Counted from the stretch's first letter, positions 6,044-62,580 are shown. The stretch is DNA of 64,000 nt from Candidatus Falkowbacteria bacterium (GCA_043801965.1 JAZDLN010000032.1:1638-65637); one strand, 5' to 3'. Numbers and translations: made by a program. Notes: a model not told the origin generated them from the sequence alone.

Positions 6044-8234
6044 ATTTATTTCGGTAGATCCGGAGACTGTTGCCTATGACGGTAACGTCGGATAACCCCA
6101 TGGCCAGGGCGGCGATCATTGGGGAAATAAAGCCGGCCATAGCCAGGGGAATGGCCAAAATGTTATAGAAAAATGCCCAAAAAAGATTCCCCCGGATGGT
6201 TTTGAAGGTTTTTTGCGACAGGCGGATCGCCTCCATTATTTTGCGCGGATCATTCTGCATTATTATGATGTCGCCGGATTCTTTCGCGATATCCGTGCCG
6301 GAAGCCATGGCGATGCCGAGATCCGCTTCGATCATGGCGGGGGCGTCGTTTATGCCGTCACCCGCGAAAATGACTTTTTTGCCGTTTTTCCTAAACTCTC
6401 TTACTTTCGCCATCTTGTCCCCGGGCAGAACTTCCGCGAAATATCTTTCGACCCCCAAAGTTTCGGCTACGGCCCCCACGCTCGCCCGGCTATCGCCGGA
6501 AATTATGACCGGTTCGATCCCGGCCGCCTTAGTCTCTTTTATGGCTTCCGCGGAACCGGGTTTAAGCTTGTCCGCCAAAAGGATCGCGCCTATAACCTGC
6601 GGCCCCCGGGCGACAAAAAGCATAGTGCCGCCCTGATCTTTGTTGTGCTCCGCCATGTCGTCGGCCCAGGCGGTGTCCAACTTGAATTCAGAAAGCAGGC
6701 GGCGGTTCCCCAAAAGAATGACATGGGAAAGTTTTTCCGCCGTCGTTTCGCAGTGGGCGTATATCCCGCGGCCGGGCACTTCTTTCGAATCGGCTACCCG
6801 GTCCGGTTTTATCCTGAGTGTTTTAGCGTGAGCATGTACGGCGCGGGACAGGGGATGGTTCGAATTTTCCGCCAATCCGCCCGCGACCTTAAGGATTATT
6901 TCTTCCGTAAAATAATATTTTTTGTTTTTGAGTATTTTTTCCACGGTCGGTTTTCCTTCGGTTAAAGTGCCGGTTTTATCGAACACGACGATATCCGCGT
7001 TTTTAGCTTTTTCGAAACTCTCCCCGTTCTTTATGAGGATCCCGTTTTTCGCGCCGACGCTCGAACCGACCATGATCGCGATCGGCGTGGCAACGCCTAA
7101 GGCGCAAGGGCAGGAAATGACCAATACCGCGACGGCGTTAATAATGGCTTGGCCGATATCTCCGGTAGCCAGAAACCAGCCGATAAAGGTCAGAAAGGCG
7201 ATCCCGACCACAACCGGCACGAAAACAGCCGATATCTTATCCGCTAAACGCTGGGCCGGAGCCTTGAATCTTTGCGCTTCTTCGACTGTCCGGACTATTT
7301 GCGCCAATACGGTATTCTCTCCGTTTTTAGTAACTTTTATTTTTATGGCTCCGTCAAGATTCATGGTGGCGCCGAAAACGTCAGCGCCTTTTTCCTTATA
7401 GACCGGCAAGCTTTCGCCCGTCAGCATCGATTCATCTGCGCTTGATCGGCCGTCTATGATCTTTCCGTCCAAAGGGATTTTTTCTCCCGCCTTAACAAAA
7501 AGAATATCGCCGATCTTTATTTCGTTTATGTCCTTAAGGACGAATCCGCCGCGCGCCAGGACCCGCGCTCTTTTAACGCCCAGTTCCAGGAGTTTTTTCA
7601 TGGCCAGGGAGGCCCGATCCCTGGTTTTAAATTCGAGCCATCGTCCCAGGAGGATCAAGGCCGTGATCGTGGCTGCCCCCTCAAAATAAAGATCGCCGCC
7701 GGAGAACATGGCGTAAACGCTGTAACCATAAGAAGCTAGGGTGCCGAGCGATATAAGAGTGTCCATATCCGCCTGACGGCGGAAGAGCGCTTTAACCGCG
7801 TTTCGATGGAATTGCCAACCCAGAAAAAAAACGACTGAAAACGCGAGACCGGCCTGCACCCAGTTAGTCGCGCTTACCCCCAGATAGGCGCCTGGTATTT
7901 CCCACATCCAGATCATGCGCAGTAAAAGGGGAGCGGATAGCAGGATACTGATCGCAGTTTTTATCTTGAGCGATTTTTCCTCCCTTGTGCCATGGCTATG
8001 CTCATGCTCATGGCCCGCGCCGGAACCGTCCGCTACCTCGTAGCCCGTATCTTTAATGACTTTTTTTATATTATTCTCGTCGGTTTTGCTTTCATCGAAT
8101 TCAATCAGAGCTTTGCTTGCGGCGAAATTAACATCCGCGGCTTTGACGCCCGCGGCCTTTTTAAGGTTAATGGCGATATTGGCGGCACACGAAGCGCAGT
8201 GCATGCCGTTTATGTTTAAAGAGATTTTAGACAT
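6042..8234 (-). CDS. copA: Copper-translocating P1B-type ATPase
   Basis: 730 aa. N-terminal [11 protein letters not shown], a His-rich linker, CPC in SCPCALG, DKTGTLT phosphorylation site and GDGINDAP hinge. Confidence 0.95.
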
Positions 8235-8243
8235 AAGCTTAAA

Positions 8244-8382
8244 TTATCAATTATCAATTTACAATTTTCAATCAATGATTTAATTTTCAATTTCCATTTT
8301 TTGTTTCCGTAAGCAGTAACCGGCAATGAAAATTAAAAAATTGAAAATTCATTGAAAATTGATTATTGAGAATTGAAAATTA
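8244..8382. repeat. Imperfect AT-rich palindrome of about 140 bp built from TTGAAAATT/CAATT words
   Basis: Left arm 8244-8300 pairs with right arm 8325-8382. It fills the gap between the HMA-fusion gene stop and the copA start. Confidence 0.7.
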
Positions 8383-8416
8383 AACGTTAGAGTATTTTAT
8401 TTATTTGTTTTGAAAA

Positions 8417-9853
8417 TTATTCACTGCATCCTTCCAGGCTGCAGGTTCCGGTCGGCGGCGTCTGAGCTTTGGCTGGCTGGATATTCTGATCCGAACCGAT
8501 CCCTTCGTCCGTTACTATGAATTTGCCCCAGACCATGCGCATCCAGCAGGAGAATTTAATCTCTTTAACCCCGGTCGGCGGCGTGAATTCAATGATATTT
8601 TCGCCATAAACAAGATCCTTTTTTATCGCTAAAGACTCGATCATGATCGCGTCTGTACAGCCGGTCATCTGTTTGACGTTGATTACCCAGCGCACCGGCA
8701 GTCCCGGTTTTATGTAAAGCACATTCGGGGAATAGCCGCTATATGTCAGGTCCATGTTGATAGTTTGATAATCGGCGACGTCCCGAGGATTTTGTTCGGC
8801 CGCGCTCTCCGCATTTGACGGTAATAACCCTCTAAAGCCATAACCGAAATTAGTTAAGCCGCGGTTAAGCATGACGAGGCCTAAAACGGCCACGACCACG
8901 GCGGATATTTTCATGACCCTTCCGACATACCTGGCGGAGAGGGAGGAAACGAAGGCGCCGAAGCCGAACATGAGCGGTATTGTCCCCAGGGCATAAAGAC
9001 CCATACTCAAAGCGCCGCGCGCGATATCGCCGGTTCCCAGGGCGTATAATTGCATGGCCTGCAGAGGGCCGCAGGGCATAAATCCGGTCATTAGCCCGAT
9101 AATAAGTGGGCTCTTGGGATTGTCCGCATGCTTCTGGCCGTAAAGCCAGCGGGCGATAAAAGACGGCAGGCGAAAATTTACTTTTTTAAGCCAGCGGAAT
9201 TTTGTAAAAAGAGAGAGGGCCATAAGGATCATGAATAATCCGGCCAGGAGCATGACCGCGCCGCTAAAGACGGGATTCACGCCGAAAAAAGAACCGACTC
9301 CGCCCAAGACGCCGCCGATAATCGCGTAAGAAACGAGCCGGCCCAGATTATACTGGAGGTGGGACCGGGAAAAGCCGGTTTTTTTGTCCGGATTTTTCGC
9401 GGCCATACCGGCCGTGTAAGCCGTTACCAAACCGCCGCACATGCCAACGCAATGGAAGCTGGCCAGAAAACCGATAAGAAGGATCAAGGGATAGCTCACG
9501 CTTTCTTCGTTCAGGCGGGATAAGATCTCAAGCCCTCCGGACGCCCTGAAGATCAAATAAATTATTACTGCCGCGGCTAAGGCCAGAGGAAATAAAAGCC
9601 CGTGGATGATTTTTTTATTTCTGGTCTCGTCGGCGCTTTTATCGCCCGCGATAGTATAGTTAAGGCCGGTAATGGTTTTTTCTATGTCCGTTCGGGATGT
9701 TTTGCCGTCATCGAATTCGACGCGGCATAAGCCGGTTCGATAATCGACCTCGATATTTTTTACCCCCGGCATGGCCGCGACTTCGGTTTCGATCAAAGTT
9801 TTGCAGCTGCGGCAATGAAGACCGTTTAAGTTCAGCTCGATTTGTTTAAGCAT
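8417..9853 (-). CDS. HMA domain / DsbD_2-TauE-like membrane domain / C-terminal cupredoxin-like domain fusion protein
   Basis: 478 aa. GLHCRSC HMA motif, membrane Cys motifs FHCVGMCGG and FMPCGPLQ, a beta-rich soluble C-terminal domain and a GTCSLEGCSE tail. Confidence 0.7.
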   Translation of the reverse strand: MLKQIELNLNGLHCRSCKTLIETEVAAMPGVKNIEVDYRTGLCRVEFDDGKTSRTDIEKTITGLNYTIAGDKSADETRNKKIIHGLLFPLALAAAVIIYLIFRASGGLEILSRLNEESVSYPLILLIGFLASFHCVGMCGGLVTAYTAGMAAKNPDKKTGFSRSHLQYNLGRLVSYAIIGGVLGGVGSFFGVNPVFSGAVMLLAGLFMILMALSLFTKFRWLKKVNFRLPSFIARWLYGQKHADNPKSPLIIGLMTGFMPCGPLQAMQLYALGTGDIARGALSMGLYALGTIPLMFGFGAFVSSLSARYVGRVMKISAVVVAVLGLVMLNRGLTNFGYGFRGLLPSNAESAAEQNPRDVADYQTINMDLTYSGYSPNVLYIKPGLPVRWVINVKQMTGCTDAIMIESLAIKKDLVYGENIIEFTPPTGVKEIKFSCWMRMVWGKFIVTDEGIGSDQNIQPAKAQTPPTGTCSLEGCSE

Positions 9854-9862
9854 GGATTTGTC

Positions 9863-9933
9863 AGTATATGGTATTAAGTATTTAGTATAAAGCAGACGGG
9901 CCCGCTTAATACTAAATACTATATACTTAATAC
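9863..9933. repeat. Imperfect palindrome of the TATTAAGTATTTAGTA repeat family with GC core CGGGCCCG
   Basis: Arms gtattaagtatttagtat / atactaaatactatatacttaatac. Related copies occur at 34045-34098 and 59915-59950. Confidence 0.7.
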
Positions 9934-9936
9934 TCG

Positions 9937-10221
9937 TTATTTGTTCGCCAATTTGATCACTCTTAAAATCTCCTCGGTCATCTGTTGTTTGATCTTTTCG
10001 TTTTTGGCGGCCATGGCGTTTTTAAAGCAGGTATTAAGGTGGTTTTCCATGAGCATCTGGTGGGCCGATTTTAAGAGCCCGATAACCGCCAGATTCTGCT
10101 GCATGATATTGATGCAGTATTCCTTGTCTTCGACCATGGCCAGGATCTTTCCTAAAAGACTTTGCGCCTTTTTGAAATTAATGATAGTTTGTTCTTTTTT
10201 GTCCATAGGATTATGATTCAT
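9937..10221 (-). CDS. csoR: CsoR/RcnR/FrmR-family metal-sensing transcriptional repressor
   Basis: 94 aa with the C-H-C signature (EYC ... SAHQMLMENHLNTC). First gene of the copper operon. Confidence 0.8.
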   Translation of the reverse strand: MNHNPMDKKEQTIINFKKAQSLLGKILAMVEDKEYCINIMQQNLAVIGLLKSAHQMLMENHLNTCFKNAMAAKNEKIKQQMTEEILRVIKLANK

Positions 10222-10354
10222 TTTTTTGTCATTTCGACCGGAGCGGAGCGAAGGGAGAAATCTATAATACGTTGTGTTTGTAACAGCAATGTTTAGCAGC
10301 TTATCAGCGTATTATAGATCTCTCCTCCCGCGGGTCGTCGAGATGACAAAAAAA
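10221..10354. repeat. 134-bp imperfect palindrome abutting the csoR start codon
   Basis: TTTTTTTGTCATTTCGAC...GAGAAATCTATAATACG pairs with CGTATTATAGATCTC...GTCGAGATGACAAAAAAA around a 36-nt loop. The GGAGCGAAG core also occurs at 20566. Confidence 0.75.
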
Positions 10355-10584
10355 TGTTTTTATTATATGCGACGTCCGATTTAAAAATCGGTAATTTGTA
10401 ATTAATTACCATGACCTGGGGTGGGGGTATAAATAACTTATCACGGATTCTAAAAAATAGCAAGAATGTAAAATAAGCCATTTTTGAACGATTAGGAAAA
10501 CCTCTGTGGATAACCACGGAAAGGAAACGAAGAGTATTGTATAAAAAATTTGCGCAACCGCCGGATTTTAGGTAGTATGAAAGT

Positions 10585-11829
10585 ATGAAAAAAATAATCG
10601 TAACAATCATAATATTAGCTAACTTAATCCCTTTTTCCGGCAATGCCGCTAATTTGAGCGATAAGTTATCCGGCCGGATATTATTAGATGTCGAGCGCAA
10701 CGGCGAGGCCTGGTATATTTATCCGAAAGACAAAAAACGGTATTACCTCGGGCGGCCGGCTGACGCTTTTAGAGTGATGCGTGAATTAGGCCTCGGGATA
10801 AGCGAATCCAATTTCCAGCGGATCGCGCAGGCGGGCATGCCGGTCAAAGGGGATACCGCCCTGGCGCGCGCGCTGGCCGGCACGATCGTACTCCAGGTCG
10901 AAAAAAACGGCGAAGCCTGGTATATTAATCCGCTTGACCTTAAAAAATATTATTTAGGTCGCCCGGAAGACGCGTTCAGGGTCATGAGAGAACTCGGGCT
11001 CGGGATCACGCGCGAAGACCTGGCCCTGATACATAAACCCGGAACCGACGAGTCGATAAATAAGTGGAGCAAGTATGAACATAAAAAAATAAGCGCGGTT
11101 GGCAGAGAATTTACGGTTGATATGATCACGATAAATCTCGATAACCCGCGACTTTGGATCACGACCGACGCAACTGCCTTGTCGCCGGCGCCCAATAACG
11201 ACAAATATGACGGTTTTTTTAGTGCCAAGAGCCTGGGTAAGTTCGTAACCGAGCACGACGGCTTTGCCGGAGTGAACGGCACGTATTTTTGCGCCTATGC
11301 CAGCTGCGAGTCCAACAACTATTATTTTTTTCCGGTTTACGATACTTTTCTGGGCAAGATCATTAACGAGGACCAGCTTAAATACTGGACCACCGGTCCG
11401 ATCATGGCTTTCGATATAGTAAATAATTTCTATTACTTTAAAGACAGCCGCGAGCTTAAAAGCCTTGAAAATTTCGAAACCGTTTACGGCACGAAACTGC
11501 AGGCGGCTATCGGCAATAAACCCCGCTTAATCGAAAATGGACAAAATCAGCTTATCGAATGGGAACTGGACGATAAGCAAAAGAACGCCCGGGCCATGCG
11601 CAATGCGATCGGTTATAAAAAGGGGGACAACGACGGCAAAGGAACCGTTTATCTGGTCATTATCCAAAACGCCACTGTGCCTGATCTGGCCGAGGTTATG
11701 AAAGCCATCGGTGTCGACTATGCTCTGAACCTGGACGGCGGTTATTCATCCGCTCTTTGGTACGGGGATGAATATATGGTCATGCCGGGACGGGATATTC
11801 CCAACGCGATTATTTTTAGTGAAAAGTAA
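10585..11829 (+). CDS. Secreted phosphodiester glycosidase family protein (NAGPA-like) with two N-terminal tandem repeat modules
   Basis: 414 aa with signal peptide. The motif (E/V)xNGEAWYIxPxDxKxYYLGRPxDAFRVMRELGLGI is duplicated. C-terminal YALNLDGGYSSALWY. Confidence 0.6.
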   Translation: MKKIIVTIIILANLIPFSGNAANLSDKLSGRILLDVERNGEAWYIYPKDKKRYYLGRPADAFRVMRELGLGISESNFQRIAQAGMPVKGDTALARALAGTIVLQVEKNGEAWYINPLDLKKYYLGRPEDAFRVMRELGLGITREDLALIHKPGTDESINKWSKYEHKKISAVGREFTVDMITINLDNPRLWITTDATALSPAPNNDKYDGFFSAKSLGKFVTEHDGFAGVNGTYFCAYASCESNNYYFFPVYDTFLGKIINEDQLKYWTTGPIMAFDIVNNFYYFKDSRELKSLENFETVYGTKLQAAIGNKPRLIENGQNQLIEWELDDKQKNARAMRNAIGYKKGDNDGKGTVYLVIIQNATVPDLAEVMKAIGVDYALNLDGGYSSALWYGDEYMVMPGRDIPNAIIFSEK

Positions 11830-11832
11830 ATA

Positions 11833-11963
11833 AAAGAAACAAGAAACAAATTACAAGTTACAAACAAAACTCAAATCCCAAAACTCAACCACCAAACAGT
11901 TTGAAATTTATAATTTGTAATTTGAAATTTGTTTGTAACTTGTATCTTGTGTCCTTGTATTTT
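11833..11963. repeat. Imperfect palindrome of about 130 bp, AAGAAACAAG/CAAATTACAA family
   Basis: acaagttacaaacaaa pairs with tttgtttgtaacttgt, around the centre ccaaacagtttg. Its homologue lies at 18111-18240. Confidence 0.75.
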
Positions 11964-11971
11964 ATTTTTTT

Positions 11972-12238
11972 ATGTTATCTAAATTCAAAAACCAATTGAA
12001 AGACAAGGGCGAGGTTTATTTGCGCATTAAAGTAAGGCCGGGGGCAAGCGCCAATAAGATAAAAGAAGTAATGGCCGACGACACCGTCAAGATCGATATC
12101 GCGGCGGCTCCTGTCAGGGGACGGGCAAATAGCGAGCTGGTCGGATTTTTATCCGATGAGTTTTCAGTTCCGGCTGGAAATGTTATAATATTAAGCGGAG
12201 CGGGAGATAAAATAAAATTAGTGAAAATAAAAAATTAA
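11972..12238 (+). CDS. DUF167 (YggU-like) family protein
   Basis: 88 aa. VRPGASANKI ... IAAAPVRGRANSELVGFLS. Confidence 0.8.
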   Translation: MLSKFKNQLKDKGEVYLRIKVRPGASANKIKEVMADDTVKIDIAAAPVRGRANSELVGFLSDEFSVPAGNVIILSGAGDKIKLVKIKN

Positions 12239-16990: not shown

Positions 16991-16999
16991 ATGTTTATA

Positions 17000-17071
17000 G
17001 GTTTTAGCTGTTTCAGCCCGAAGCTGATCCGCCCCGGGAGGAGGCTTATGGCTAGGGCGAACGCTAAAACC
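17000..17071 (+). promoter_or_regulatory. Candidate structured 5' leader of rplU (closing stem plus two hairpins)
   Basis: ggttttagc (17000-17008) pairs with gctaaaacc (17063-17071). Inner hairpins are tcagc-ccgaa-gctga (17013-17027) and cgccc...gggcg (17030-17059). Confidence 0.4.
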
Positions 17072-17123
17072 AGAAATCTAAAAACCTAACAGCTAAAAGC
17101 TATAAGCTAAGAGCTCAACAAAT

Positions 17124-17441: not shown

Positions 17442-17465
17442 AACTTTTTCTATTTTAACATATAA

Positions 17466-17496
17466 AAAATCCGCTTTTAGGGCGGGTTTTTGTTTT
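17466..17496. terminator. Bidirectional terminator between rplU and recR
   Basis: aaaaaatccgc-ttttagg-gcgggttttt. Confidence 0.6.
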
Positions 17497-17513: not shown

Positions 17514-18110
17514 TTAAAGGGGGTTCCGATATTTTAAGGCATGGGTCAGGGTTATTTCGTCCGCGTATTCCAGGTCAACTCCCATGGGTAAACCCTTGGC
17601 CAATCTGGTTATTTTTACGTTAAGCGGCTTAAGGATTTTCGTCAGGTAGAGAGCGGTGGTTTCACCTTCGAAATTATGGCTTAAACCTAAAATAACCTCT
17701 TTAACACCGGTATTTTTTATCCTGTGCAGGAGTTGTTTTATGGTCAGATTTTCCGGACCAATATCGTCTATAGTGTTAATTAATCCCTCCAGGACGTGGT
17801 AAAGGCCGCTGTAGTGCCTGGTAGCTTCGATAACCCGCATGTCGCGGGAAGTGGAAATAACGCAAATTACGGCATTGTCCCTTTTTTTGTCGGAGCAGAT
17901 TGGACAAGGATCGGCCTCCGCGATCGCGAAACAACGGCCGCATGTCTTCGTGCCTTCTTTAAGCTCGGCGATCGCCTGGGCCAGTTTTTGAAGATCTTCG
18001 CCGCTTTGTTTCAGTAAATAAAAAACATACCGTTCCGCGGTTTTCGGTCCGACAGTGGGCAGTTTGGTAAAATGATCTATAAGATTTTGGATGGCCTGGG
18101 GATACCGCAT
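17514..18110 (-). CDS. recR: Recombination protein RecR
   Basis: 198 aa. Zinc finger CGRCFAIAEADPCPIC and a Toprim domain. Confidence 0.9.
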   Translation of the reverse strand: MRYPQAIQNLIDHFTKLPTVGPKTAERYVFYLLKQSGEDLQKLAQAIAELKEGTKTCGRCFAIAEADPCPICSDKKRDNAVICVISTSRDMRVIEATRHYSGLYHVLEGLINTIDDIGPENLTIKQLLHRIKNTGVKEVILGLSHNFEGETTALYLTKILKPLNVKITRLAKGLPMGVDLEYADEITLTHALKYRNPL

Positions 18111-18240
18111 ACAAGAAACAAGGACACAAGACGCAAATTACAAACAAATCTCAAATATCAAAAAATCAATTATCAAAACGTTTGATTTTTGAATATTGTG
18201 GTTTGAGATTTGCTTGTGTCCTTGTTTCTTGTATCTTGTA
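18111..18240. repeat. 130-bp imperfect palindrome, same family as 11833-11963
   Basis: acaagaaacaaggacacaag...caaaacgtttg...cttgtgtccttgtttcttgt. It fills exactly the gap between the ybaB stop and the recR ATG. Confidence 0.8.
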
Positions 18241-18243
18241 AAA

Positions 18244-18519
18244 CTAGTTTAATCCTGGGAATCCTCCCATCTCCTGCATTTTTTGGGCCATGACACGCTG
18301 GGTTTTTTTTATGGCCTCGTTGACGCAATCGGCTAAAACACCCTCCAGGCTTTCTTTGGCCAGGTCTTCGTTGATTATTATTTTTGTTATTTCCATATTG
18401 CCGTTCATGGATACCTGGACTCCGCCTCTGTTGATAGTGACGGATTCGTTAGCCAGGGCATTTTGCATCTGCTTGGCCGTGCTTCTAAGATCTTTTAAGT
18501 GCTTTAATTTATTGAACAT
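18244..18519 (-). CDS. ybaB: YbaB/EbfC family nucleoid-associated protein
   Basis: The ORF track starts at 18561. The family-typical N-terminus MFNKLKHLKDL begins at the internal ATG at 18519. Confidence 0.85.
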   Translation of the reverse strand: MFNKLKHLKDLRSTAKQMQNALANESVTINRGGVQVSMNGNMEITKIIINEDLAKESLEGVLADCVNEAIKKTQRVMAQKMQEMGGFPGLN

Positions 18520-18561
18520 ATTTTTATGTTTATTATTGATTAGAATTGACCGGCAACCCAT

Positions 18562-18665
18562 GAATTTACAAATCTTTTTACAAATCTACAAATTCCGGTA
18601 AAAACGTTTTGTTTTGCATTTGTAAACTTGTATTTGATTTGTAGATTTGTGGGAATTTTGTAAAT
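18562..18665. repeat. Imperfect palindrome of about 100 bp built of ACAAAT words
   Basis: acaaatctacaaat pairs with atttgtagatttgt around the centre aaaacgtttt. A related element lies at 30377-30468. Confidence 0.7.
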
Positions 18666-21964: not shown

Positions 21965-21990
21965 TAGAGACGAGGCATGCCTCGTCTCTA
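21965..21990. repeat. Perfect 26-nt palindrome TAGAGACGAGGCATGCCTCGTCTCTA (dispersed repeat)
   Basis: A near-identical copy lies at 52475-52500. No T-run follows it. Confidence 0.8.
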
Positions 21991-22020
21991 CCCATGATTG
22001 GCGTGAACCAAAATAAAAGA

Positions 22021-22054: not shown

Positions 22055-24334
22055 TTAAACTTCTTTGAATCTTTTTGCCAGATCGTTGTCAATCACGTAA
22101 ATGGCGATTTCCTGCGCCCCTTGTTCGGTGTATCCGAATTTTTCTATCAGATTCTTGAACAGGTAACACACGTCATCCCGGATCTTGCGATCGTAGGTTT
22201 TAAAACCCTCTTTGCCGTAATCCTTGATGGCGTTGCGGAAATTGCTGTTGTCAACGAAGGGGTCGAGCGCTTTGGCTTTGACGTTTTTGGTAAATAATTC
22301 GAACAAATCTTTATACTGCTTCGTTTCCTTGATCGTTTTGCCTTCCAGGCGCATTTCCTGGGCCAGGGTCATATTCGAATAGATTTTGGCATTGTCGGAA
22401 CGAAAAGCATCGATCTCTTTTTCCCAGTCGGAAAGTCTTTTGTTGCCGCGAGGGATGAAGAATTTTTCGATTTCATCGAGAATATCTCTCGTTAACACGT
22501 ATTTTTCTTTAACGTACGGGCAGGTAATTTCGGTTTTTAATTCGCAGGTAATGGCGTACATCCATTTTTTTACGTAATAGGAAATGCGTTCGTCGTTGTA
22601 GTAGAAGAGCGATTCTTTCATTTCCTGCAGAACGGAGAAATCGTACAAGTTCATCAATGAATCCAGAAAGCCGTCCGGAATCGATGTTTTTAGCTCTTTC
22701 TTCTTAAAAACGAATTTAGCCAGGTCGGATAAATTGATCAGCCGGTCAGGCTTCGCGTGCTGGGAGTAAAACTCTCCGAAGATCCGGATCGAATCGCGGC
22801 CGGAAATGCCGTTTTTCCCCTCGCCATCAGCCTCCGCCAATATCCGGCGCCGCCGCTTGGCGTTCAATCTTTTACGGTCTTCCTGGTTAAGCCAATCGGG
22901 TATGTTACCGCAGTAGATGAACATCTTCAGGAGCTGGAGGTTTTTGTCGCAGAATTTTTCGTATTTTTCGGATTTATCGGCACTTTCTTTTTTCTCGATC
23001 CATTCGAACATAGCCGGCGACTTCGCGCTCAGACGCGTAGCAATGATTATTTTGGCGAAATTCTGAAATACCCGGGGCAGGAATGCCGCCTCTATGTGCT
23101 CGCCGAAAGTATCCTTGTAGATGCCGCTTTCCGTGATGTAATCAAGAACATAGGAAATATTAATGAATTGGATGCGGTCGGAAAGCGACTTCATCTCATC
23201 GATTACCTTTTTGTCTTCCGGATTCATGACGCCGATCAGGAGGGAATCCGCGGTTTCTTCGATATCTTCGACCCGATGCACTCTTTCGGAAACGATATTG
23301 TGCTGTTCCTTGAGGCGTTCCACGTTGTACGATTTAACGTCCATCAGGGCGCGCAAACCGTTATTGGTTTTGGCGTAGGTCGAAAATACGTATTGTACTT
23401 TGGTGCTCTGCAGAAGCCCGTTGATGTTCCTTTGGGCGATCGGGTCGGTTCTGACGTTTTGCTTCGTGGGCGGATCGCCGGGATTGAAGACGGAGATACC
23501 CTCTCCCATGCGCCGATTCATGCGGAAAGGACGGCAGTAGAGGAAGTCCAGGACTTTTTTCCGGTCCTTGTATTTCCACATCAGCTCTTCGTATAAGGCG
23601 CCGCAGATAGTGCAGGGTTCGTCTTTTAAGAGCCACTCGTATTCCTTATCCGCGAAAAGCCTGAATTTCATTTCACCGTTCGGGAACAGGTCATCGAAGA
23701 ATTCGCGGCGGTGTTTTTTCGGCACCATAAGTATGGGGTTGTCGTGGCTGGGGCAGGGGATCTCGACATATTGGCTGTCGCCGCCGCATTCGCAATTCTC
23801 GTTTTTCTTGTCGGTTCCTTCGTGCCAGGCGCCTATTTCGCCGCGCGGAAATTTCCAGACGACTTCGAAGCGCAAGCCTTCGGGGGTGTTCGAATAGTCC
23901 TGCAGGCGGCGCAGAAGGTTATTGAGGAACGTGCTTTTGCCGCAGCCGTGCGGACCGTCGAATATGTAGATCTTATTCTGCTGCGTTCCCCGTTTCATGT
24001 CTTCCGTCCACGCGATCAGCCGGTTCGCGAATATCCGATCGGCGAAGAAGCGGTGGTTGGAATCGATGGCGAAGAGCCCGGTGCAGTCATAATCGATATA
24101 ACCGATATTCTCCGGATCGTTCGGGTCTTCTTCTTCCCCCTTCTCGACGAAGGATTTTACCATATCGTAGAAGTACTGGAAAATATTCCGGGTGGCGATC
24201 TCCGGGTTCGACGCGGCCATCAGTAGGAATTCCTCGAAACTGATCGGTCCGTACGAGATATCATTATCCCGCTTTTCCAGCTCCGTCAATCGCCTGACTA
24301 TCTTTTTGACGCTTTCGGTCGTGATTGTATCCAT
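22055..24334 (-). CDS. Second, divergent PrkA-like P-loop protein
   Basis: 759 aa. Walker A DGPHGCGKST. By eye it is collinear with the 692-aa PrkA (SHDNPILMVP~YEDPMILAMN; LSDRIQFINISY~IIDRCRVCYVSH). Carries a Cys cluster NCEC...CPSH...CTIC. Confidence 0.65.
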   Translation of the reverse strand: MDTITTESVKKIVRRLTELEKRDNDISYGPISFEEFLLMAASNPEIATRNIFQYFYDMVKSFVEKGEEEDPNDPENIGYIDYDCTGLFAIDSNHRFFADRIFANRLIAWTEDMKRGTQQNKIYIFDGPHGCGKSTFLNNLLRRLQDYSNTPEGLRFEVVWKFPRGEIGAWHEGTDKKNENCECGGDSQYVEIPCPSHDNPILMVPKKHRREFFDDLFPNGEMKFRLFADKEYEWLLKDEPCTICGALYEELMWKYKDRKKVLDFLYCRPFRMNRRMGEGISVFNPGDPPTKQNVRTDPIAQRNINGLLQSTKVQYVFSTYAKTNNGLRALMDVKSYNVERLKEQHNIVSERVHRVEDIEETADSLLIGVMNPEDKKVIDEMKSLSDRIQFINISYVLDYITESGIYKDTFGEHIEAAFLPRVFQNFAKIIIATRLSAKSPAMFEWIEKKESADKSEKYEKFCDKNLQLLKMFIYCGNIPDWLNQEDRKRLNAKRRRRILAEADGEGKNGISGRDSIRIFGEFYSQHAKPDRLINLSDLAKFVFKKKELKTSIPDGFLDSLMNLYDFSVLQEMKESLFYYNDERISYYVKKWMYAITCELKTEITCPYVKEKYVLTRDILDEIEKFFIPRGNKRLSDWEKEIDAFRSDNAKIYSNMTLAQEMRLEGKTIKETKQYKDLFELFTKNVKAKALDPFVDNSNFRNAIKDYGKEGFKTYDRKIRDDVCYLFKNLIEKFGYTEQGAQEIAIYVIDNDLAKRFKEV

Positions 24335-24403
24335 TTTATCCTCCCCGAGGGCAGTTTTAGTTCAGGGAGCCGGGAAGAGTTCAATCTTCCCGGAATTCCC
24401 CTT

Positions 24404-26014
24404 TTATGACATTGTTTCGCGCTTGAGTTTTTTGCCCATCATAGTGTAGAGCACCCGCTGCCAGGTAATCTTCTTTGTTCCGTCCTTGCGCTGCTCGATA
24501 TTCGCGACCTCGTTCGTTTCGAGAAAAACCGGTCCGCCCCAAAGGTACTCTATGCCCAGCATGGTATTTAAGATGAATTCCTTTACCAGGGCCTTTCCTT
24601 CGAAGTGGTGTTTAAGACAGAGGCCGTTTACTTCGGACGCTTCGTTCACGGTAATGTGCGGCGGATGATAGAGGACGTTGAAAAGCATTTGCCGGTAATC
24701 CACGGCTTTTCGGCTTTTTACGTACCAGACCCAGACCCGGCGGCCTTCGTCCAAATACCTGTCGGCCACGAAAAGATCGTTTTTCGTCACGAAACCCTGG
24801 TCCACGAAGGTGGACAGGAAACTGAAGTCACAGAGGCTTTCCCGGATCTTAAAGATAAATTCCTGACCCTGTCCGGTCCGTTCATTGAATTTTTCGCGCT
24901 CGATCGCGTCCGAAAGGCTTTTGTATTTGAGGGAATACTTGTTGGTATCGCCCAATTCCTCGATCCATTGGAATAAGCGGAGGCCCAGGGCGTAAGGATT
25001 AAGACCCACGCGCGGCATAGAGGTAACGCCGGCGTTAACGCGGGCAAAATCAACCTCGTGGCCCCGGATGCGGTCATCGGTCAAGAACAATTTTTCGTGC
25101 CAGTAAGATGCCCAGCCTTCGTTCATGATCTTGGTTCGGATCTGCGGCTGGAAAAAAGCCGAAGTTTTCCGCACCACTTCCATTACCGCCTTCATCCAGG
25201 CGTTCTTACCCTGGTTCAAAAACTGCGAATTCTTCATGACGTATTGGATCGGATCGAGTTTTTGCGACTGCGGGCTCTCCTTGCAGTAGCTGCTGTATTT
25301 GGCCGGCATTTCCGGCCAGACCTGGTTGACGGCGTGGAGAAACGCGTTTTCTCCGTCCGTCCGGTTGTACTCCTCGATCCATTTCATGTAGGTCTGCTGG
25401 CGCGAATTATCGTTTTTGAATTCAGCGATGGTTTGCAGGAATATATCGAAGAAATAGTCGATTTTACCGAGTTTTTTCGGGGTTTCGCGGGAATCGGTCC
25501 TGGATAGTTCCCCCCAGTAATCCACCAGATTGTCCATGCCGCGCGTAAACTCGATAACGTAATCGACCCACCGTCCGTGCTCTCTTCTTAAATTAGCGAT
25601 CAGCCGCTTATCGGACAGCGCCTCGCCGCAAAAGTCGTAATCCCAGGTGTTGCGGAAATAATGGTTCTTCCGGAAAAAATCGATATGTCCGAGGACGTGA
25701 TAGAAGATCATGACGTTAAGCCAGTCCGGATTATTATCGTTATAGAACGAAATGGCCGGACGGGTGTTGATCACGGTCTCGTAGGGGTTAGAGGGATAAA
25801 GCTCGTATTTGCCCCTGCCCTGGAGCACTTCGATATCGTGCACCCAGTAATCATAGAGCGTCGGGATCATGATCTTCGGGGATAGCTCTACGAGGTCGCG
25901 GTTGGTAACTATGTATTCCAGGGTTTCGTCATTGACGTCAAGCCCGGCGTCCACGGCCCTCTTCTTGCATTCTTCCATTATACCTTTGGTGTGTTGGTCG
26001 ATTAACTTCGACAT
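24404..26014 (-). CDS. spoVR: SpoVR family protein
   Basis: 536 aa. Size and sequence style of SpoVR/YcgB (HVLGHIDFF, NEGWASYWH). Starts 10 nt after the DUF444 gene. Confidence 0.8.
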   Translation of the reverse strand: MSKLIDQHTKGIMEECKKRAVDAGLDVNDETLEYIVTNRDLVELSPKIMIPTLYDYWVHDIEVLQGRGKYELYPSNPYETVINTRPAISFYNDNNPDWLNVMIFYHVLGHIDFFRKNHYFRNTWDYDFCGEALSDKRLIANLRREHGRWVDYVIEFTRGMDNLVDYWGELSRTDSRETPKKLGKIDYFFDIFLQTIAEFKNDNSRQQTYMKWIEEYNRTDGENAFLHAVNQVWPEMPAKYSSYCKESPQSQKLDPIQYVMKNSQFLNQGKNAWMKAVMEVVRKTSAFFQPQIRTKIMNEGWASYWHEKLFLTDDRIRGHEVDFARVNAGVTSMPRVGLNPYALGLRLFQWIEELGDTNKYSLKYKSLSDAIEREKFNERTGQGQEFIFKIRESLCDFSFLSTFVDQGFVTKNDLFVADRYLDEGRRVWVWYVKSRKAVDYRQMLFNVLYHPPHITVNEASEVNGLCLKHHFEGKALVKEFILNTMLGIEYLWGGPVFLETNEVANIEQRKDGTKKITWQRVLYTMMGKKLKRETMS

Positions 26015-26024
26015 TGTCGACCTC

Positions 26025-27374
26025 CTACTCTGACAGTATTGTTTTAATGCCTTCGATCAAACGCGGTTCTTCGGCGTCTTCGGGCATGGAATCAAGGCGG
26101 ATCAGCTTCGGATATTCTTTGAGCAAGTTGGATTTTTTGACGTATTTTTCAACTTCCGTCGATCCGTCGCCGTTTCTGTTCACCACGGTAATGCCGACCC
26201 GGTTGACGTAGCTCATCATTTTTTTGAGTTCCGGCACCGCTTCCTTGCCCTCAGCATCCCAGTCGTCGCCGTCCGTACCGTGGAAAACATAGATATTGTA
26301 TTCCTGGGCCAGATTCTCTTTTTCGGCGATCTCGTTAACCAGCTTATAGCCCGAGGACACTTGCGTTCCGCCGGCAACCTTCGAGTTGTAGTAGGTAAAA
26401 AAATCCGGAACTTCCTTGGCGGAGGTATCGTGCAGAATGAACCGGCATTCAGCCAGGTGTTCGTACTGGTAAAGCAGAAAGGCGTAGATCATGACATGCT
26501 GGCTCACCACTATCTGGGTGCGTTTTCCCGTCATCGAGCCGGAATAATCGCGGACAAAGAAGATCATGGCCGGAGATTCGAAAACCTTTTCGCGGGAAAG
26601 TATCCGATAGATCATGTCTTTCGGCGACACGATCAGCTGTTCCGTATCGACGTTCTCGGGGTCGATATTATCCAGCGCTATGTTGGTTTCTATGATCTTC
26701 CGCAGCGAAGCCTTCTTATCGAGAAATTGCCCGAAACCCCGGTTGCGGTCGGTCAGGTCGTATTTGATGCGGGTACTCGGTCTTTTTTTCGACTTTTCCT
26801 GCAGATGCGGCAGGGAGAATTTTTCCGTCAGCACCCGGCCGAGCTCATAGGCTGACTGCTCGATGCCGTGGTTGGTTTCCTCTCCCTGGCCCGGACCGGC
26901 GCCGCTGCCCTGTTCGCTTTGGTCTATCGGCTGTTCGCCGATAACCTCTCCTTCTTCGCCCTTGCCTTGCCCGCCGGCCCCTTCTTCCTGCTCCGAGGCT
27001 TCCGGATCGTGGATGAACTTTTCCTCGGTCGTGGTCGGCACGACTATGACTCTCTGACCGCTTCTTCCTGGTTTTACCAGGCGTCCGATCCGTATTTTTT
27101 CGGGAAAGCCGTCCTTTGTCCGCTGTTTGTCGTGACCCAGAAGATCGTCAATGGACTTGATATCAAGAGACCGATTTTGTTCGGCATGCATATTAAGAAG
27201 ACGGCTTTGATCGCTATTCGCCGGACCGTATAACCCGGGGACCGGTTTAGGAGCCGCCGGCGGCAGACTATGGTCGCCGCCTACTTCTATTTCGGAGAGC
27301 ATTCTTTTTCTTTTATCTTCCGAGCTTCTATCGGCAAAGCGCCGATAGACGCGTTTAAGCTGCTTCTTGTCCAT
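26025..27374 (-). CDS. DUF444 family protein (YeaH/YhbH-like, vWA-type fold)
   Basis: 449 aa. FFVRDYSGSMTG MIDAS-like motif and an acidic/Gly-rich insert EEGAGGQGKGEEGE. Confidence 0.8.
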   Translation of the reverse strand: MDKKQLKRVYRRFADRSSEDKRKRMLSEIEVGGDHSLPPAAPKPVPGLYGPANSDQSRLLNMHAEQNRSLDIKSIDDLLGHDKQRTKDGFPEKIRIGRLVKPGRSGQRVIVVPTTTEEKFIHDPEASEQEEGAGGQGKGEEGEVIGEQPIDQSEQGSGAGPGQGEETNHGIEQSAYELGRVLTEKFSLPHLQEKSKKRPSTRIKYDLTDRNRGFGQFLDKKASLRKIIETNIALDNIDPENVDTEQLIVSPKDMIYRILSREKVFESPAMIFFVRDYSGSMTGKRTQIVVSQHVMIYAFLLYQYEHLAECRFILHDTSAKEVPDFFTYYNSKVAGGTQVSSGYKLVNEIAEKENLAQEYNIYVFHGTDGDDWDAEGKEAVPELKKMMSYVNRVGITVVNRNGDGSTEVEKYVKKSNLLKEYPKLIRLDSMPEDAEEPRLIEGIKTILSE

Positions 27375-27439
27375 AAACCCTCCTTAATAGATAAACGGCC
27401 GGGAAACCTAAAAGCGGCATTCCCGGCCTTGTTGACGTC

Positions 27440-29518
27440 CTATTTTTCGTCGTCCTGGGTGCAGAAGTACTCGATCGTCTTCTGCGCGCAGGTCTTGCAG
27501 TATCCAAGCCCCTTTTGTTCAGCGGGCCGCATCATGGTCGTTATCATCCGGTCGTACAATTTCTGGTTCTCCTCGTTGGTACGGTTGGCCAAAGCTCCGA
27601 TAAGGCTGCCGGCGCCGGCGATGTCCGATTTCAGGCGCACGTCCGTGACGGCCTTGACCAATTCAAGATTGTCCATGAAATCGTAGTTCGGATCGACCGA
27701 AATTTTTTGGCCGTAGATCTTGCGGATCGAGGTCCGGAAAGTTTCCCGCTGCTCCTCGGTTTTTAAGCCCAGCCGTTCTTCGACCGACTTTATGAACCGT
27801 TCGTCGATCTTCATGGCCTTAAGCTCGCCGGTTTGCGGATCCTTGTATTTCCACATCTTGTCCGGACCGAGGTTTTCCGCGTCGATGCCGATGATCATAT
27901 TGACGTAGTTCATGACGTCTTTGCGGATGGCCAGAGGTTCGTCCATATAGGCGTTAAACATCTCCGTCATGATCCGTTCCCGGTAAAGCCCCTTGGCCGT
28001 CTTGATGTCATCCAGGAATTTTATCCGGTCGTTGTTGTCGGATACGTAATCCAGGACAACGCGTTCGAGCGCCGTAAATACGTCGTGAGCGAAGAGGCAT
28101 TTTCCCTTGTTGGTCGCCGAGCTTTCGTTTAAGATCTGCATCGCCCGGCCCAGGTTGCGCTGGCCGAAACCTTTCTGGCCGAAATGATCCATCGGGTTGG
28201 CTTTCTGGTTCAAGGTGTCAATCACCTCGGCCAAAGCCTTGACGGATTTTTCGCCGGCAACTTCGCCGGCCGCCAGTTTCATCATCTCGATCGGATCGAG
28301 CTTTTCGGCTTGCGGCAGGCGCATAAGGACCGCGGCCACGGAAGCGGCATAGATAAGATTCGGGTCTTCGTGCAGAGGTTCGCTTTTGAGCGTCTTTCTG
28401 TCCCGGTCGCCGATCGAATAGCGCGTGAGATCGTACTGGAGCTTGTAGTTGGTATTATGGGAAACGTAGCAGACGCGGCAGCGGTCGATGATCGGGGATT
28501 GCGCCTTGTCGGCCAGGAAGTTCGCGAATTCGGAATTGTTCGAAGTGGCGATAATAAGGGTATCGATCGGCCATTTATAGCCGTCGATCTCGATGCAGCG
28601 GTTCTGGATGACGCCCAGGTATACCTGGACAAGGTCAAGCTTGTTCTTGTAGATTTCGTCAGCGAAATGGATTCCGCCGCCGGCTACGCGGGCTAAAGCG
28701 CCGCGCCGCAGGTCGAAGCGGTAAGGGTTGTTCGTGTCGGTAATGTGGAGCAGACGCTGGATCGATTCCTCGCCTAAGAGGTCGACGGCCGACGAAGTGA
28801 TCTTGTCCTTGGCCGGATATTTTCCGGTAACTGTCCCCAGGCTTTCGCTTAAGGGTACCGGAAAAGTACGGATATAACCGAGCATCTTATTGATGTCGCC
28901 TTTGGCGTGCTCGCGGATACTTTCCCAGATATAGCTCGTGCAGGCGCCCAAAGGTCGGTAATTCTCGTAAAGTTTATCGATCTGTTTTTCGTTAAATCCG
29001 CACTGGCACAGGAACTCCCGGTTCTCGGATCTGTTTTCAAAAAGGTTCATGGCCAGGATCATCGGATCCTCGTAAGTCTGCGATTCGATCGTCTTGATCC
29101 GGCCGTATGATCCGAGCTCCCCGACGTTCGTGAATTTAAAGGAATAACGGCGATTGCCCGGCTCTGCCAGGAATTTCCGGTATTTGCCGCACAGGAACTC
29201 AACGAAAAAGGTCTTGCCGTTTCCCGGTTCGCCGATCAGCACGAAGGCCATCTCTTTGGAAGATCCGTTCTCGGCCGCGTCCTTTATGAAAGACACGAGG
29301 CTGTTGACCTCGTCGTAGAGGCCGATGATGTGCTTTTTGTCCTTGCGGAAAATATTATAATCGAAAGTGTCCATGCCGTTTACCTGGACATCTTCAAGTC
29401 CAGCTCCCAAAATCATGCGGGATATCCCCTGGAAAGCGTTTTCGAAAATTCGCTCCCCGGAGATAATGGCGGCAATGTGATCATACAAGGTGTTGCCTTC
29501 AAGCGACTTTGCGGTCAT
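27440..29518 (-). CDS. prkA: PrkA family serine protein kinase / AAA+ ATPase (YeaG-like)
   Basis: 692 aa. Walker A GEPGNGKTFFVE and Walker B GGIHFADE. SD AAAGGAGAAAAATC precedes the ATG. Confidence 0.9.
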   Translation of the reverse strand: MTAKSLEGNTLYDHIAAIISGERIFENAFQGISRMILGAGLEDVQVNGMDTFDYNIFRKDKKHIIGLYDEVNSLVSFIKDAAENGSSKEMAFVLIGEPGNGKTFFVEFLCGKYRKFLAEPGNRRYSFKFTNVGELGSYGRIKTIESQTYEDPMILAMNLFENRSENREFLCQCGFNEKQIDKLYENYRPLGACTSYIWESIREHAKGDINKMLGYIRTFPVPLSESLGTVTGKYPAKDKITSSAVDLLGEESIQRLLHITDTNNPYRFDLRRGALARVAGGGIHFADEIYKNKLDLVQVYLGVIQNRCIEIDGYKWPIDTLIIATSNNSEFANFLADKAQSPIIDRCRVCYVSHNTNYKLQYDLTRYSIGDRDRKTLKSEPLHEDPNLIYAASVAAVLMRLPQAEKLDPIEMMKLAAGEVAGEKSVKALAEVIDTLNQKANPMDHFGQKGFGQRNLGRAMQILNESSATNKGKCLFAHDVFTALERVVLDYVSDNNDRIKFLDDIKTAKGLYRERIMTEMFNAYMDEPLAIRKDVMNYVNMIIGIDAENLGPDKMWKYKDPQTGELKAMKIDERFIKSVEERLGLKTEEQRETFRTSIRKIYGQKISVDPNYDFMDNLELVKAVTDVRLKSDIAGAGSLIGALANRTNEENQKLYDRMITTMMRPAEQKGLGYCKTCAQKTIEYFCTQDDEK

Positions 29519-30364: not shown

Positions 30365-30376
30365 ATTATTTATATC

Positions 30377-30468
30377 ATTACAAATTCACAAATCAAAGCA
30401 CAAATAACACAAATAATACCGGGGGATCTAAATTTGTGAATTTGTGATAAAATTTGTGAATTTGTAAT
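30377..30468. repeat. 92-bp imperfect palindrome of ACAAAT/CACAAAT words
   Basis: attacaaattcacaaat... pairs with ...atttgtgaatttgtaat. It ends 9 nt before the helicase ATG. Confidence 0.75.
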
Positions 30469-30477
30469 CATGAAGCA

Positions 30478-34044: not shown

Positions 34045-34098
34045 TATATTAGTATTAAGCCGAGTGGCTTAATACTTAATACTAAATACTATATACTG
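34045..34098. repeat. TATTAAGTATTTAGTA-family element with a perfect 11-bp hairpin
   Basis: agtattaagcc-gagt-ggcttaatact, then taatactaaatactatatact. It lies between divergent fmt and dedA and shares a 23-nt identity with 9905-9927. Confidence 0.75.
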
Positions 34099-34103
34099 AA
34101 AAA

Positions 34104-52474: not shown

Positions 52475-52500
52475 TAGAGACGAGGCAATGCCTCGTCTCT
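52475..52500. repeat. Palindrome TAGAGACGAGGCAATGCCTCGTCTCT, second copy of the dispersed repeat
   Basis: Differs from 21965-21990 by one extra A in the loop. Located 28 nt after the gltX stop. Confidence 0.8.
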
Positions 52501-52570
52501 CTTGCGAGGCAACCCGTTTTCGCATTTTGGTTTTTCCTTAACTTCGTGTTATAATAAAAGAACTTGATAT

Positions 52571-59906: not shown

Positions 59907-59914
59907 ATTTCTAG

Positions 59915-59950
59915 AATTAAGTATTTAGTATTAAGTATTTAGTATTAAGC
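59915..59950. repeat. Tandem 14-nt direct repeat AAGTATTTAGTATT x2 (TATTAAGTATTTAGTA family)
   Basis: 59918-59931 and 59932-59945. It bridges the stop of the upstream gene and the serS start region. Confidence 0.7.
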
Positions 59951-60367: not shown

Positions 60368-60377
60368 AGAGTTAGCC

Positions 60378-62493: not shown

Positions 62494-62566
62494 TAGCTTA
62501 TAGTTAGCTTTTAGCTTTTTGGCGGTGCCGATAAAGTCTTTTCGGCAAGACTAAAACTATAAGCTA
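62494..62566. repeat. Palindromic element with a 12-bp perfect outer stem and an inner hairpin, carrying the GCTAAAAGC-TATAAGCTA word
   Basis: tagcttatagtt (62494-62505) pairs with aactataagcta (62555-62566). The inner hairpin is gccga...tcggc. The word also occurs at 17092-17110. Confidence 0.7.
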
Positions 62567-62580
62567 ATATACAGTAAATT

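Follow-up and report, generated by a model that had tools for sequence, protein, structure and literature searches.

Dispersed intergenic palindromic repeats are a known kind of element, and several described systems bear comparison with the one considered here. The ERIC or IRU elements of Enterobacteriaceae and Vibrio are imperfect palindromes of about 127 bp. The Correia or NEMIS elements of Neisseria and the RPE of Rickettsia are MITE-like palindromes with defined terminal inverted repeats, accompanied in the case of Correia by a TA duplication. Foldback (FB) transposons are eukaryotic and much larger, with target duplications and associated transposase genes; the STRR of cyanobacteria are intergenic direct tandem heptamer arrays; and the attC sites of integrons, with RYYYAAC and GTTRRRY core sites, stand in promoterless cassette arrays next to intI. 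REP, BIME and REPIN sequences are palindromes of 20-40 bp that bear a GTAG or CGTC tag, go together with RAYT transposases, and lie after stop codons or between cistrons without target duplication, where mRNA stabilisation and attenuation have been proposed as their effects (PMC3733652, PMC3116915). The TAACTGA repeats of Beggiatoaceae, Cyanobacteria and Bacteroidetes are intergenic direct heptamer arrays of patchy phylogeny, often placed just upstream of starts that lack canonical ribosome-binding sites (PMC4679880). TIGR arrays have 36-nt tandem units with edge and loop repeats or box C/D stem-loops, and a gene for a Nop-domain Tas protein lies adjacent to them (PMC12045711).

In the 64,000-nt stretch of a Candidatus Falkowbacteria bacterium analysed here (the window), two palindromes, which we label e1 and e2, belong to a repeat family that is like ERIC/IRU in size, in being an imperfect palindrome over its whole length, in its non-coding character, in its intergenic position within operons in either orientation, in being present or absent between relatives, and in the mRNA folding that is expected of it, the likeness being one of architecture and context only. 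Unlike ERIC/IRU, the family has arms that are phased heptamer arrays, CPR hosts, and variable outer words in place of fixed ends, and a sequence relation is not expected. With Correia/NEMIS and RPE it shares the form of short, non-autonomous, multi-copy inverted repeats at gene boundaries, possible co-transcription, and ORF extension as at the locus L129 described below, but it has neither their target-site duplication nor their fixed termini. In the sense that MITEs are small, non-coding, multi-copy elements with inverted-repeat ends, the family is MITE-like (95-180 nt, 60 copies); a classical MITE it is not, target-site duplication and fixed ends being lacking. Like REP/BIME, the copies are extragenic palindromes that follow stop codons or lie between cistrons without target duplication; unlike REP/BIME, they have no RAYT among the 15 window proteins scanned, and an assignment to REP/BIME was rejected on the element length of 95-180 nt and on termini, AAGATACAAGGA...TCCTTGTATCTT, without a GTAG or CGTC tag.

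The long inverted arms, which are arrays of short degenerate tandem subrepeats, recall FB transposons in architecture only. The family has the 7-nt period and intergenic location of TAACTGA and STRR arrays, but here two inverted degenerate arrays form a hairpin. Integron attC sites were rejected because the ends are AAGATACAAG / CTTGTATCTT and the elements are single copies between syntenic housekeeping genes, not cassettes. A TIGR array was rejected as well, the period being 7 nt and not 36, the elements single palindromes, and the neighbours NAGPA, DUF167, YbaB and RecR, with no box C/D and no Tas. What is new is the build from phased heptamers, together with a phylum for which no such description was found.

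Two window copies and the family to which they belong

The original prediction named two homologous palindromes of about 130 bp in the window, and both are borne out by their inverted repeats, by RNA folding (z -6.6 to -9.2 against shuffled sequences) and by a pairwise identity of 76%; e1 and e2 are a real, non-chance feature, and they can be aligned with each other in either orientation (Table 1). The arms of e1 are 55 nt each and 75% complementary, with an apex, CAAACAGTTTG, at about 11893-11903, and the RNA minimum free energy (MFE) is -38.5 kcal/mol on the plus strand (z -6.6) and -47.6 kcal/mol on the minus strand (z -7.8). In e2 there is a perfect 22-nt outer stem (18109-18130 with 18213-18234), with inner arms around AAAACGTTTG and an apex at about 18174-18183; its RNA MFE is -51.2 kcal/mol on the minus strand, which is the transcribed one (z -8.2), and -54.1 kcal/mol on the plus strand (z -9.2). 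Folded as DNA, the two window copies reach z of -5.6 and -8.9, and nhmmer with the family HMM returns them at E values of 1e-25 (e1) and 2e-23 (e2). The word order that the two copies had been said to have in common is confirmed by their alignment and by CTTGTGTCCTTGT, which occurs exactly three times, always at predicted arms, and which with up to two mismatches gives five matches against 0.44 expected.

The contact of the two palindromes with their neighbouring genes differs in detail. The weak outer pairs of e1 reach into the TAA stop of the NAGPA gene (11827-11829), and the ATG of the DUF167 gene lies 9 nt beyond the end of the e1 HMM match. The TAG stop of ybaB, at 18244-18246, is 4 nt from e2, and in the RNA fold the A (18110) and U (18109) of the recR start codon form pairs at the foot of the e2 stem. 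The claim that the distal arm runs into the next start codon thus holds for e2; it does not hold for e1, whose robust stem ends at 11958, 13 nt ahead of the ATG, with only weak A-U pairs continuing to 11967. The arm called distal at e2 is the left one in plus-strand coordinates, because ybaB and recR lie on the minus strand. As had been proposed, e2 does fill the ybaB-recR spacer, which runs from 18111 to 18243.

Table 1. Positions of the two palindromes, their flanking genes, and other palindromes and spacers in the window (in the relative L121 where stated)
Feature	Position	Strand	Basis and remarks
e1	arms 11828-11882 (5', CA-rich) and 11914-11968 (3', TG-rich); family-HMM match 11836-11962		Inverted repeat, folds, nhmmer
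e2	18109-18239; family-HMM match 18113-18239		Inverted repeats, folds, nhmmer
NAGPA phosphodiester-glycosidase domain gene	10585-11829	+	ORF list, Pfam PF09992; upstream of e1
DUF167/YggU gene	11972-12238	+	ORF list, Pfam; downstream of e1, no Shine-Dalgarno motif
ybaB	18244-18561	-	ORF list, Pfam; upstream of e2
recR	17514-18110	-	ORF list, Pfam; downstream of e2, no Shine-Dalgarno motif
CAAAT-word palindrome, dnaB-ybaB spacer	18563-18660		nhmmer E 0.057; highest-ranking match below threshold, covering the inner part of the model
CAAAT-word palindrome, divergent spacer	30374-30471		nhmmer E about 2, sub-threshold
CAATTAT-heptamer palindrome, DsbD/HMA gene to P-type ATPase gene	8234-8389		
Other window palindromes built from words of roughly 7 nt (the three above included)	8234-8389; 9863-9934; 34050-34100; 59907-59944; 16995-17105; 62497-62570; 18563-18660; 30374-30471		
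Window spacers unalignable with L121	18562-18690; 18111-18243; 9854-9936; 8235-8416		
Their counterparts in L121	9512-9609; 9883-10000; 18049-18174; 19615-19848		

Copies of the family are 95-180 nt long and consist of two inverted arrays of degenerate heptamers. An alignment of 44 copies gives the word order as outer GA[T/A/C]ACAAG words, ACAAACAAAT, T..CAAAT words, CAAAC and the apex, with a near-invariant triplet every seven columns, CAA in the 5' arm and TTG in the 3' arm, and with a number of outer words that differs between copies. The lag-7 autocorrelation of the arms is 0.55 for the family and 0.60-0.66 for e1 and e2, compared with about 0.26 for random 65-mers of the window. In a subfamily found at six fetched contigs or loci, which we designate by L-numbers (L130, L195, L238, L167, L141 and L052), the apex reads AAAA(G)CCTTCGG(C)TTTT, a C(UUCG)G-type tetraloop between A and T runs. 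A fixed strand for this UUCG-like apex was rejected by inspection, the TTCG strand being inconsistent with respect to the direction of the flanking genes.

RNAalifold, run on the 44 copies, found no consensus structure and no register-conserved pairs, because the word register slips between copies, and we therefore used an HMM, per-copy folding and an arm-concordance test in place of a covariance model. In the concordance test a copy's own 3' arm matched at 0.70, against 0.66 for the 3' arms of other copies, and the own arm was the best match in 0 of the 44. Since own arms match scarcely better than those of other copies, the hairpin is explained by a single consensus to which both arms conform, and neither RNAalifold nor arm concordance found compensatory covariation between the arms in these 44 copies.

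The reach of the family extends well beyond the window. A 20-mer common to the arms, YTTGYNTCTTGTGTCCTTGT, has at least 120 matches in metagenome contigs, and among the matches listed 73 of 125 lie in long hairpins, mostly with the same word order. The family HMM, built from 26 copies and run against 1.8 Mb of DNA fetched from many metagenomes, identified 60 distinct copies, with copy densities that are biased by the fetching of this DNA around pattern matches; exactly two of the copies are in the window, and one extra copy is in the relative L121. With 60 copies, and with an ortholog of e1 in L121, the palindromes are neither limited to the original pair nor unconserved in relatives. The loci that carry the element range from 30 to 58% GC and encode housekeeping proteins 27-70% identical to those of the window, from which it follows that many different organisms carry the family. 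The mean identity of copies that share a contig is 0.79, with values up to 0.91, compared with 0.68 between contigs, as expected from amplification within a genome. The family multiplies within genomes and is present in many different genomes.

A 14-base pattern scan of genome contigs returned almost only chance matches, the sole true relative being L052 (Patescibacteria UBA2773), a clear homologue between divergent genes. Among the candidates discarded, L084 is a GACACAA microsatellite and 12 pattern matches in viral contigs are not family members; phage records gave no family match, and copies are absent from 66 kb of the distant relatives L249-L252. We found no description in the literature of dispersed repeats in CPR/Patescibacteria, and this repeat family of CPR bacteria is apparently undescribed so far.

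Filled and empty junctions

An exact match to the RecR of the window was not found; the closest RecR is from Candidatus Falkowbacteria RIFOXYB2_FULL_47_14 (92% identical), the other top matches being from Patescibacteria/Parcubacteria, and syntenic relatives were ranked by RecR identity to the window: 92% for L121-L124, 78% for L125 and L126, 72% for L249, 70% for L250, 68% for L127 and L128, 67% for L251 and 65% for L252, with genes in all loci taken from heuristic ORF calls. The contigs L121-L123 derive from groundwater samples. Comparison of the ybaB-recR spacer across relatives, which the original prediction had proposed, revealed presence/absence polymorphism: the spacer is 133 nt long in the window, 13 nt in L125, 4 nt in L249 and 6 nt in L251. 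Likewise, the NAGPA-DUF167 spacer is 142 nt in the window and 1 nt in L250. The abutment of stop and start codons on the elements, and the filling of the spacer, arise because insertion took place into spacers of 1-13 nt. The e1 ortholog in L121, the 92% relative, has an identical 3' arm and a 5' arm with whole-word swaps, and the T-run ahead of the e1 ATG is replaced there. At L129, a relative at 64-70% amino acid identity, two copies (7930-8130 and 8760-8960) and an extra small gene occupy a position where the window has a 10-nt spacer (60368-60377), and the upstream ORF apparently reads into the CA-rich arm and so acquires a K/Q/T-rich tail. Synteny with L121 also served to annotate a set of PrkA, DUF444 and SpoVR genes with a second PrkA-like gene, at 22055-29518 of the window, which is unexpected in a reduced CPR genome.

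Copies occupy about 40 tandem, 4 convergent and 4 divergent junctions; 72% of the window's own junctions are co-directional. Of 58 copies, 34 have the stop codon of a long ORF no more than 30 nt from one of their ends, with TAA often overlapping the first word, and 23 have the ATG of such an ORF within the same distance; across the family the distance to the ATG runs from 2 to more than 200 nt. In about a quarter of the tandem-junction copies examined, stop and ATG are both within about 12 nt. Orientation relative to transcription is random (15 copies in the same direction, 24 opposite). When the element is subtracted from the junction, 10 of the 30 tandem junctions that bear one are left with a residual spacer of at most 40 nt; spacers of this length make up 33% of 210 element-free junctions, yet 3.2% of intergenic bases. 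Short residual spacers thus match the junction share and not the base share, which means that copies are spread per junction, and therefore that gene ends are either targeted or selected. A per-junction, stop-proximal spread is equally expected of a selected gene-end signal.

Among 55 copies, 9% are abutted by a direct repeat of 2 nt or more, which is no more than the 10 +/- 4% that permuted flanks give, and target-site duplication is absent in comparisons of empty with filled sites too. The element termini are not fixed, although AAGATACAAGGA...TCCTTGTATCTT is the commonest pair. A crude regex search of the fetched loci for arm pairs spaced 0.5-3 kb apart, as in an autonomous element, gave none that was convincing; a mobilising enzyme or autonomous partner was not found in a crude search of the fetched DNA, and the 15 window proteins scanned include no transposase. 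A selfish insert with target preference had been one of two roles originally suggested for the palindromes, and it is supported by the dispersed multi-copy occurrence, the empty orthologous sites, the similarity of same-contig copies, the random orientation and the per-junction spread.

The other role originally suggested, a terminator or insulator plus restart module in place of the normal intergenic signals, is a less likely candidate. Both downstream genes do lack a Shine-Dalgarno (SD) motif, but this is not a distinctive trait, because 43 of the 58 heuristic window genes lack one and 15 have an SD-like motif; nor does the element stand in place of an SD, recR being without one also in relatives with empty spacers. 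A consensus terminator scan called nothing at e1 or e2, while it did call a canonical site with a G+C stem and T-run at 17465-17491, and an intrinsic terminator was rejected at the elements on this ground, on the A-U-rich stems of 45-55 bp and on the absence of the e1 T-run from the ortholog. A promoter scan found none in the arm that adjoins the downstream gene at either e1 or e2. In Rfam, only three tRNAs pass in the window and e1 and e2 stay below the gathering threshold; the permissive matches at the elements were dismissed as generic miRNA-precursor hairpins (18-29 bits against thresholds of 50-211). A gene for a cold-shock protein, a candidate binder of the heptamers, was not found among the small window ORFs tested. 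Separately, TATAAT-like hexamers stand 3-12 nt ahead of several ATGs (12270, 48058, 52571, 36528 and the minus-strand start 46781), and an SD-poor genome with TATAAT near its starts suggests leaderless or near-leaderless mRNAs.

Other heptamer palindromes and possible turnover at shared junctions

About half of the window spacers longer than 40 nt fold with z < -3, and the window holds at least four further palindrome types, built from CAATTAT, AGTATTA/TAATACT, AGCT-words and CAAAT-words; some words of these other types recur at several window sites or at other loci. Judging by their sub-threshold matches to the family HMM, the CAAAT-word palindrome between dnaB and ybaB may be a distant relative of the family, and a similar relationship is possible for the one in the divergent spacer.

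The palindromes also differ between close relatives. In L121, the spacer orthologous to the one that holds the CAATTAT palindrome contains a true family copy instead, and the palindrome types of L121 include GATATTA, GCGATTG and, with its arm polarity reversed, TTCGTTTG. When 11 syntenic spacers of the window and L121 are compared, 7 align at 81-98% identity, and the other 4 (DnaB>YbaB, YbaB>RecR, CsoR>DsbD and DsbD>ATPase) are unalignable, with a heptamer palindrome in both genomes at each. The ybaB-recR spacer of L127 holds yet another palindrome, which brings the types seen at this one junction to three, in the window, L121 and L127. Such differences at shared junctions could reflect either repeated hits or selection, or else in-place replacement of one palindrome by another. 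The presence of unrelated palindromes at four shared junctions is hard to square with random selfish insertion, and it hints at selection for some hairpin at these places or at structure-targeted replacement.

Further inverted repeats were noted in passing. Two unrelated spacers contain the same G+C-rich hairpin, (A/T)AGAGACGAGGCA..TGCCTCGTCTCT (at about 21965-21995 and at about 52476-52504), which makes another small repeat family. At 10219-10356, in the divergent spacer between the CsoR-like and NAGPA genes, the inverted repeat CATTTTTTTGTCATTTCGAC...GTCGAGATGACAAAAAAATG encloses a second, nested pair of GGAGAAATCTATAATACG; this spacer is 363 nt long in the window and 204 nt in L121, of which about 185 nt can be aligned. 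In L121, the spacer between two tRNA genes (7488-8044) holds a long palindrome of GCGATTG/CGAAAAT words, so that tRNA-flanking spacers are colonised too.

Origin, role and significance

We explain the observed family, with its anatomy, insertion polymorphism and distribution, as a foldback repeat dispersed by insertion at gene ends, in either orientation and with no duplication of the target, whose hairpin is tolerated at coupled junctions and whose RNA effects are incidental, and we place the probability of this reading at roughly 60%. If it is correct, the copies would be co-transcribed with their operons, and the RNA would fold into A-U-rich hairpins of roughly 45-55 bp. Such a hairpin would keep the stop and start codons side by side, and in this way the element could be tolerated at tightly coupled junctions. 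Some 3'-end stabilisation or attenuation between cistrons might result incidentally, as proposed for REP/ERIC, probably not as a dedicated signal. Nothing so far establishes a dedicated stop-and-restart signal of the kind originally envisaged, and by analogy the elements look like the selfish palindromic repeats of other bacteria.

A functional intercistronic module seems to us unlikely, even though several of the observations above are what it would predict. Here a selected hairpin would attenuate or insulate transcription, or protect the 3' end of the upstream mRNA, and would bridge re-initiation: a ribosome ending at the base of the stem would unwind it, expose the AUG and re-initiate, in a manner comparable to ribosome shunting. 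The geometry of e2, with a stop 4 nt from the stem and an AUG inside the stem base, would suit this mechanism, as would the quarter or so of tandem copies with stop and ATG within about 12 nt, the per-junction, stop-proximal distribution, and the unrelated palindromes at the same junctions in sister genomes, of which there are three types at ybaB-recR. Ancestral spacers of 1-13 nt imply, moreover, that coupled translation had to survive insertion. Those ancestral spacers were already too short for separate signals, however, and several relatives do without an element at these junctions, which shows it to be dispensable. A module is also at odds with ATG distances that range from 2 to more than 200 nt, with the copies in divergent spacers, and with the lack of strand bias, of compensatory covariation and of any terminator signature, the T-run of e1 being lost in its ortholog. 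The lack of SD motifs is general in this genome, and the replacement palindrome in L121 has the opposite arm polarity and folds weakly (RNA z -2.9, DNA z -1.4). It is more doubtful still that several heptamer-hairpin families are interchangeable foldback cassettes, swapping in place as orientation-independent intercistronic modules that hold stop and start together and allow re-initiation on an SD-less start. If this were true, the cassettes would be a bacterial analogue of ribosome shunting in which the stem sets the ratio of upstream to downstream expression, and their in-place turnover would imply an undescribed machinery for structure-targeted insertion or replacement.

Two further readings can be considered. 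In one, which we think very unlikely, the conserved part is the arm sequence and not RNA pairing, and the CAA/TTG heptamers form a DNA-level array or cruciform that binds a nucleoid protein, a transposase-like recombinase or a cold-shock-domain protein. This would account for CAA/TTG being invariant every 7 nt with the other positions variable, for arms without within-copy co-variation beyond the family consensus, for an orientation independent of transcription and for the copies in divergent, possibly untranscribed spacers; the DNA hairpins are stable (z -5.6 and -8.9), and Csp or S1 binding has been discussed as a possibility for TAACTGA heptamer arrays (PMC4679880). Against it, no candidate protein was found, orthologous sites in relatives are without copies, and the other palindrome families of the same genomes use different heptamers, even with opposite polarity. 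A 7-bp spacing, in addition, does not put sites on one face of B-DNA, which is unfavourable to an array of this kind. In the other reading, each palindrome was generated locally, by heptamer slippage followed by template-switch palindromisation, and the likeness between copies is convergent. Variation in the number of outer words, the apparent whole-word swaps between orthologous e1 copies and the coexistence of many unrelated heptamer-palindrome families would be natural consequences of such a process, but convergence is highly improbable given the same module order and exact 20-mers in loci of 30-58% GC and 27-70% protein identity, and given identities of up to 91% between copies at unrelated loci of one contig.

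The repeats have practical consequences. They are usable as strain-typing markers, and they call for caution in assembly and gene calling, where ORFs may enter the CA-rich arm and starts may be mis-called in the TG-rich arm. They also offer a natural experiment on how coupled translation withstands a 130-nt insertion in an SD-poor organism. CPR/Patescibacteria genomes are small and compact, and the family shows selfish or semi-domesticated DNA persisting in these reduced genomes. Rapid in-place exchange of unrelated palindromes, if confirmed on complete genomes, would indicate a novel way of inserting DNA or else a class of intercistronic signal not seen before.
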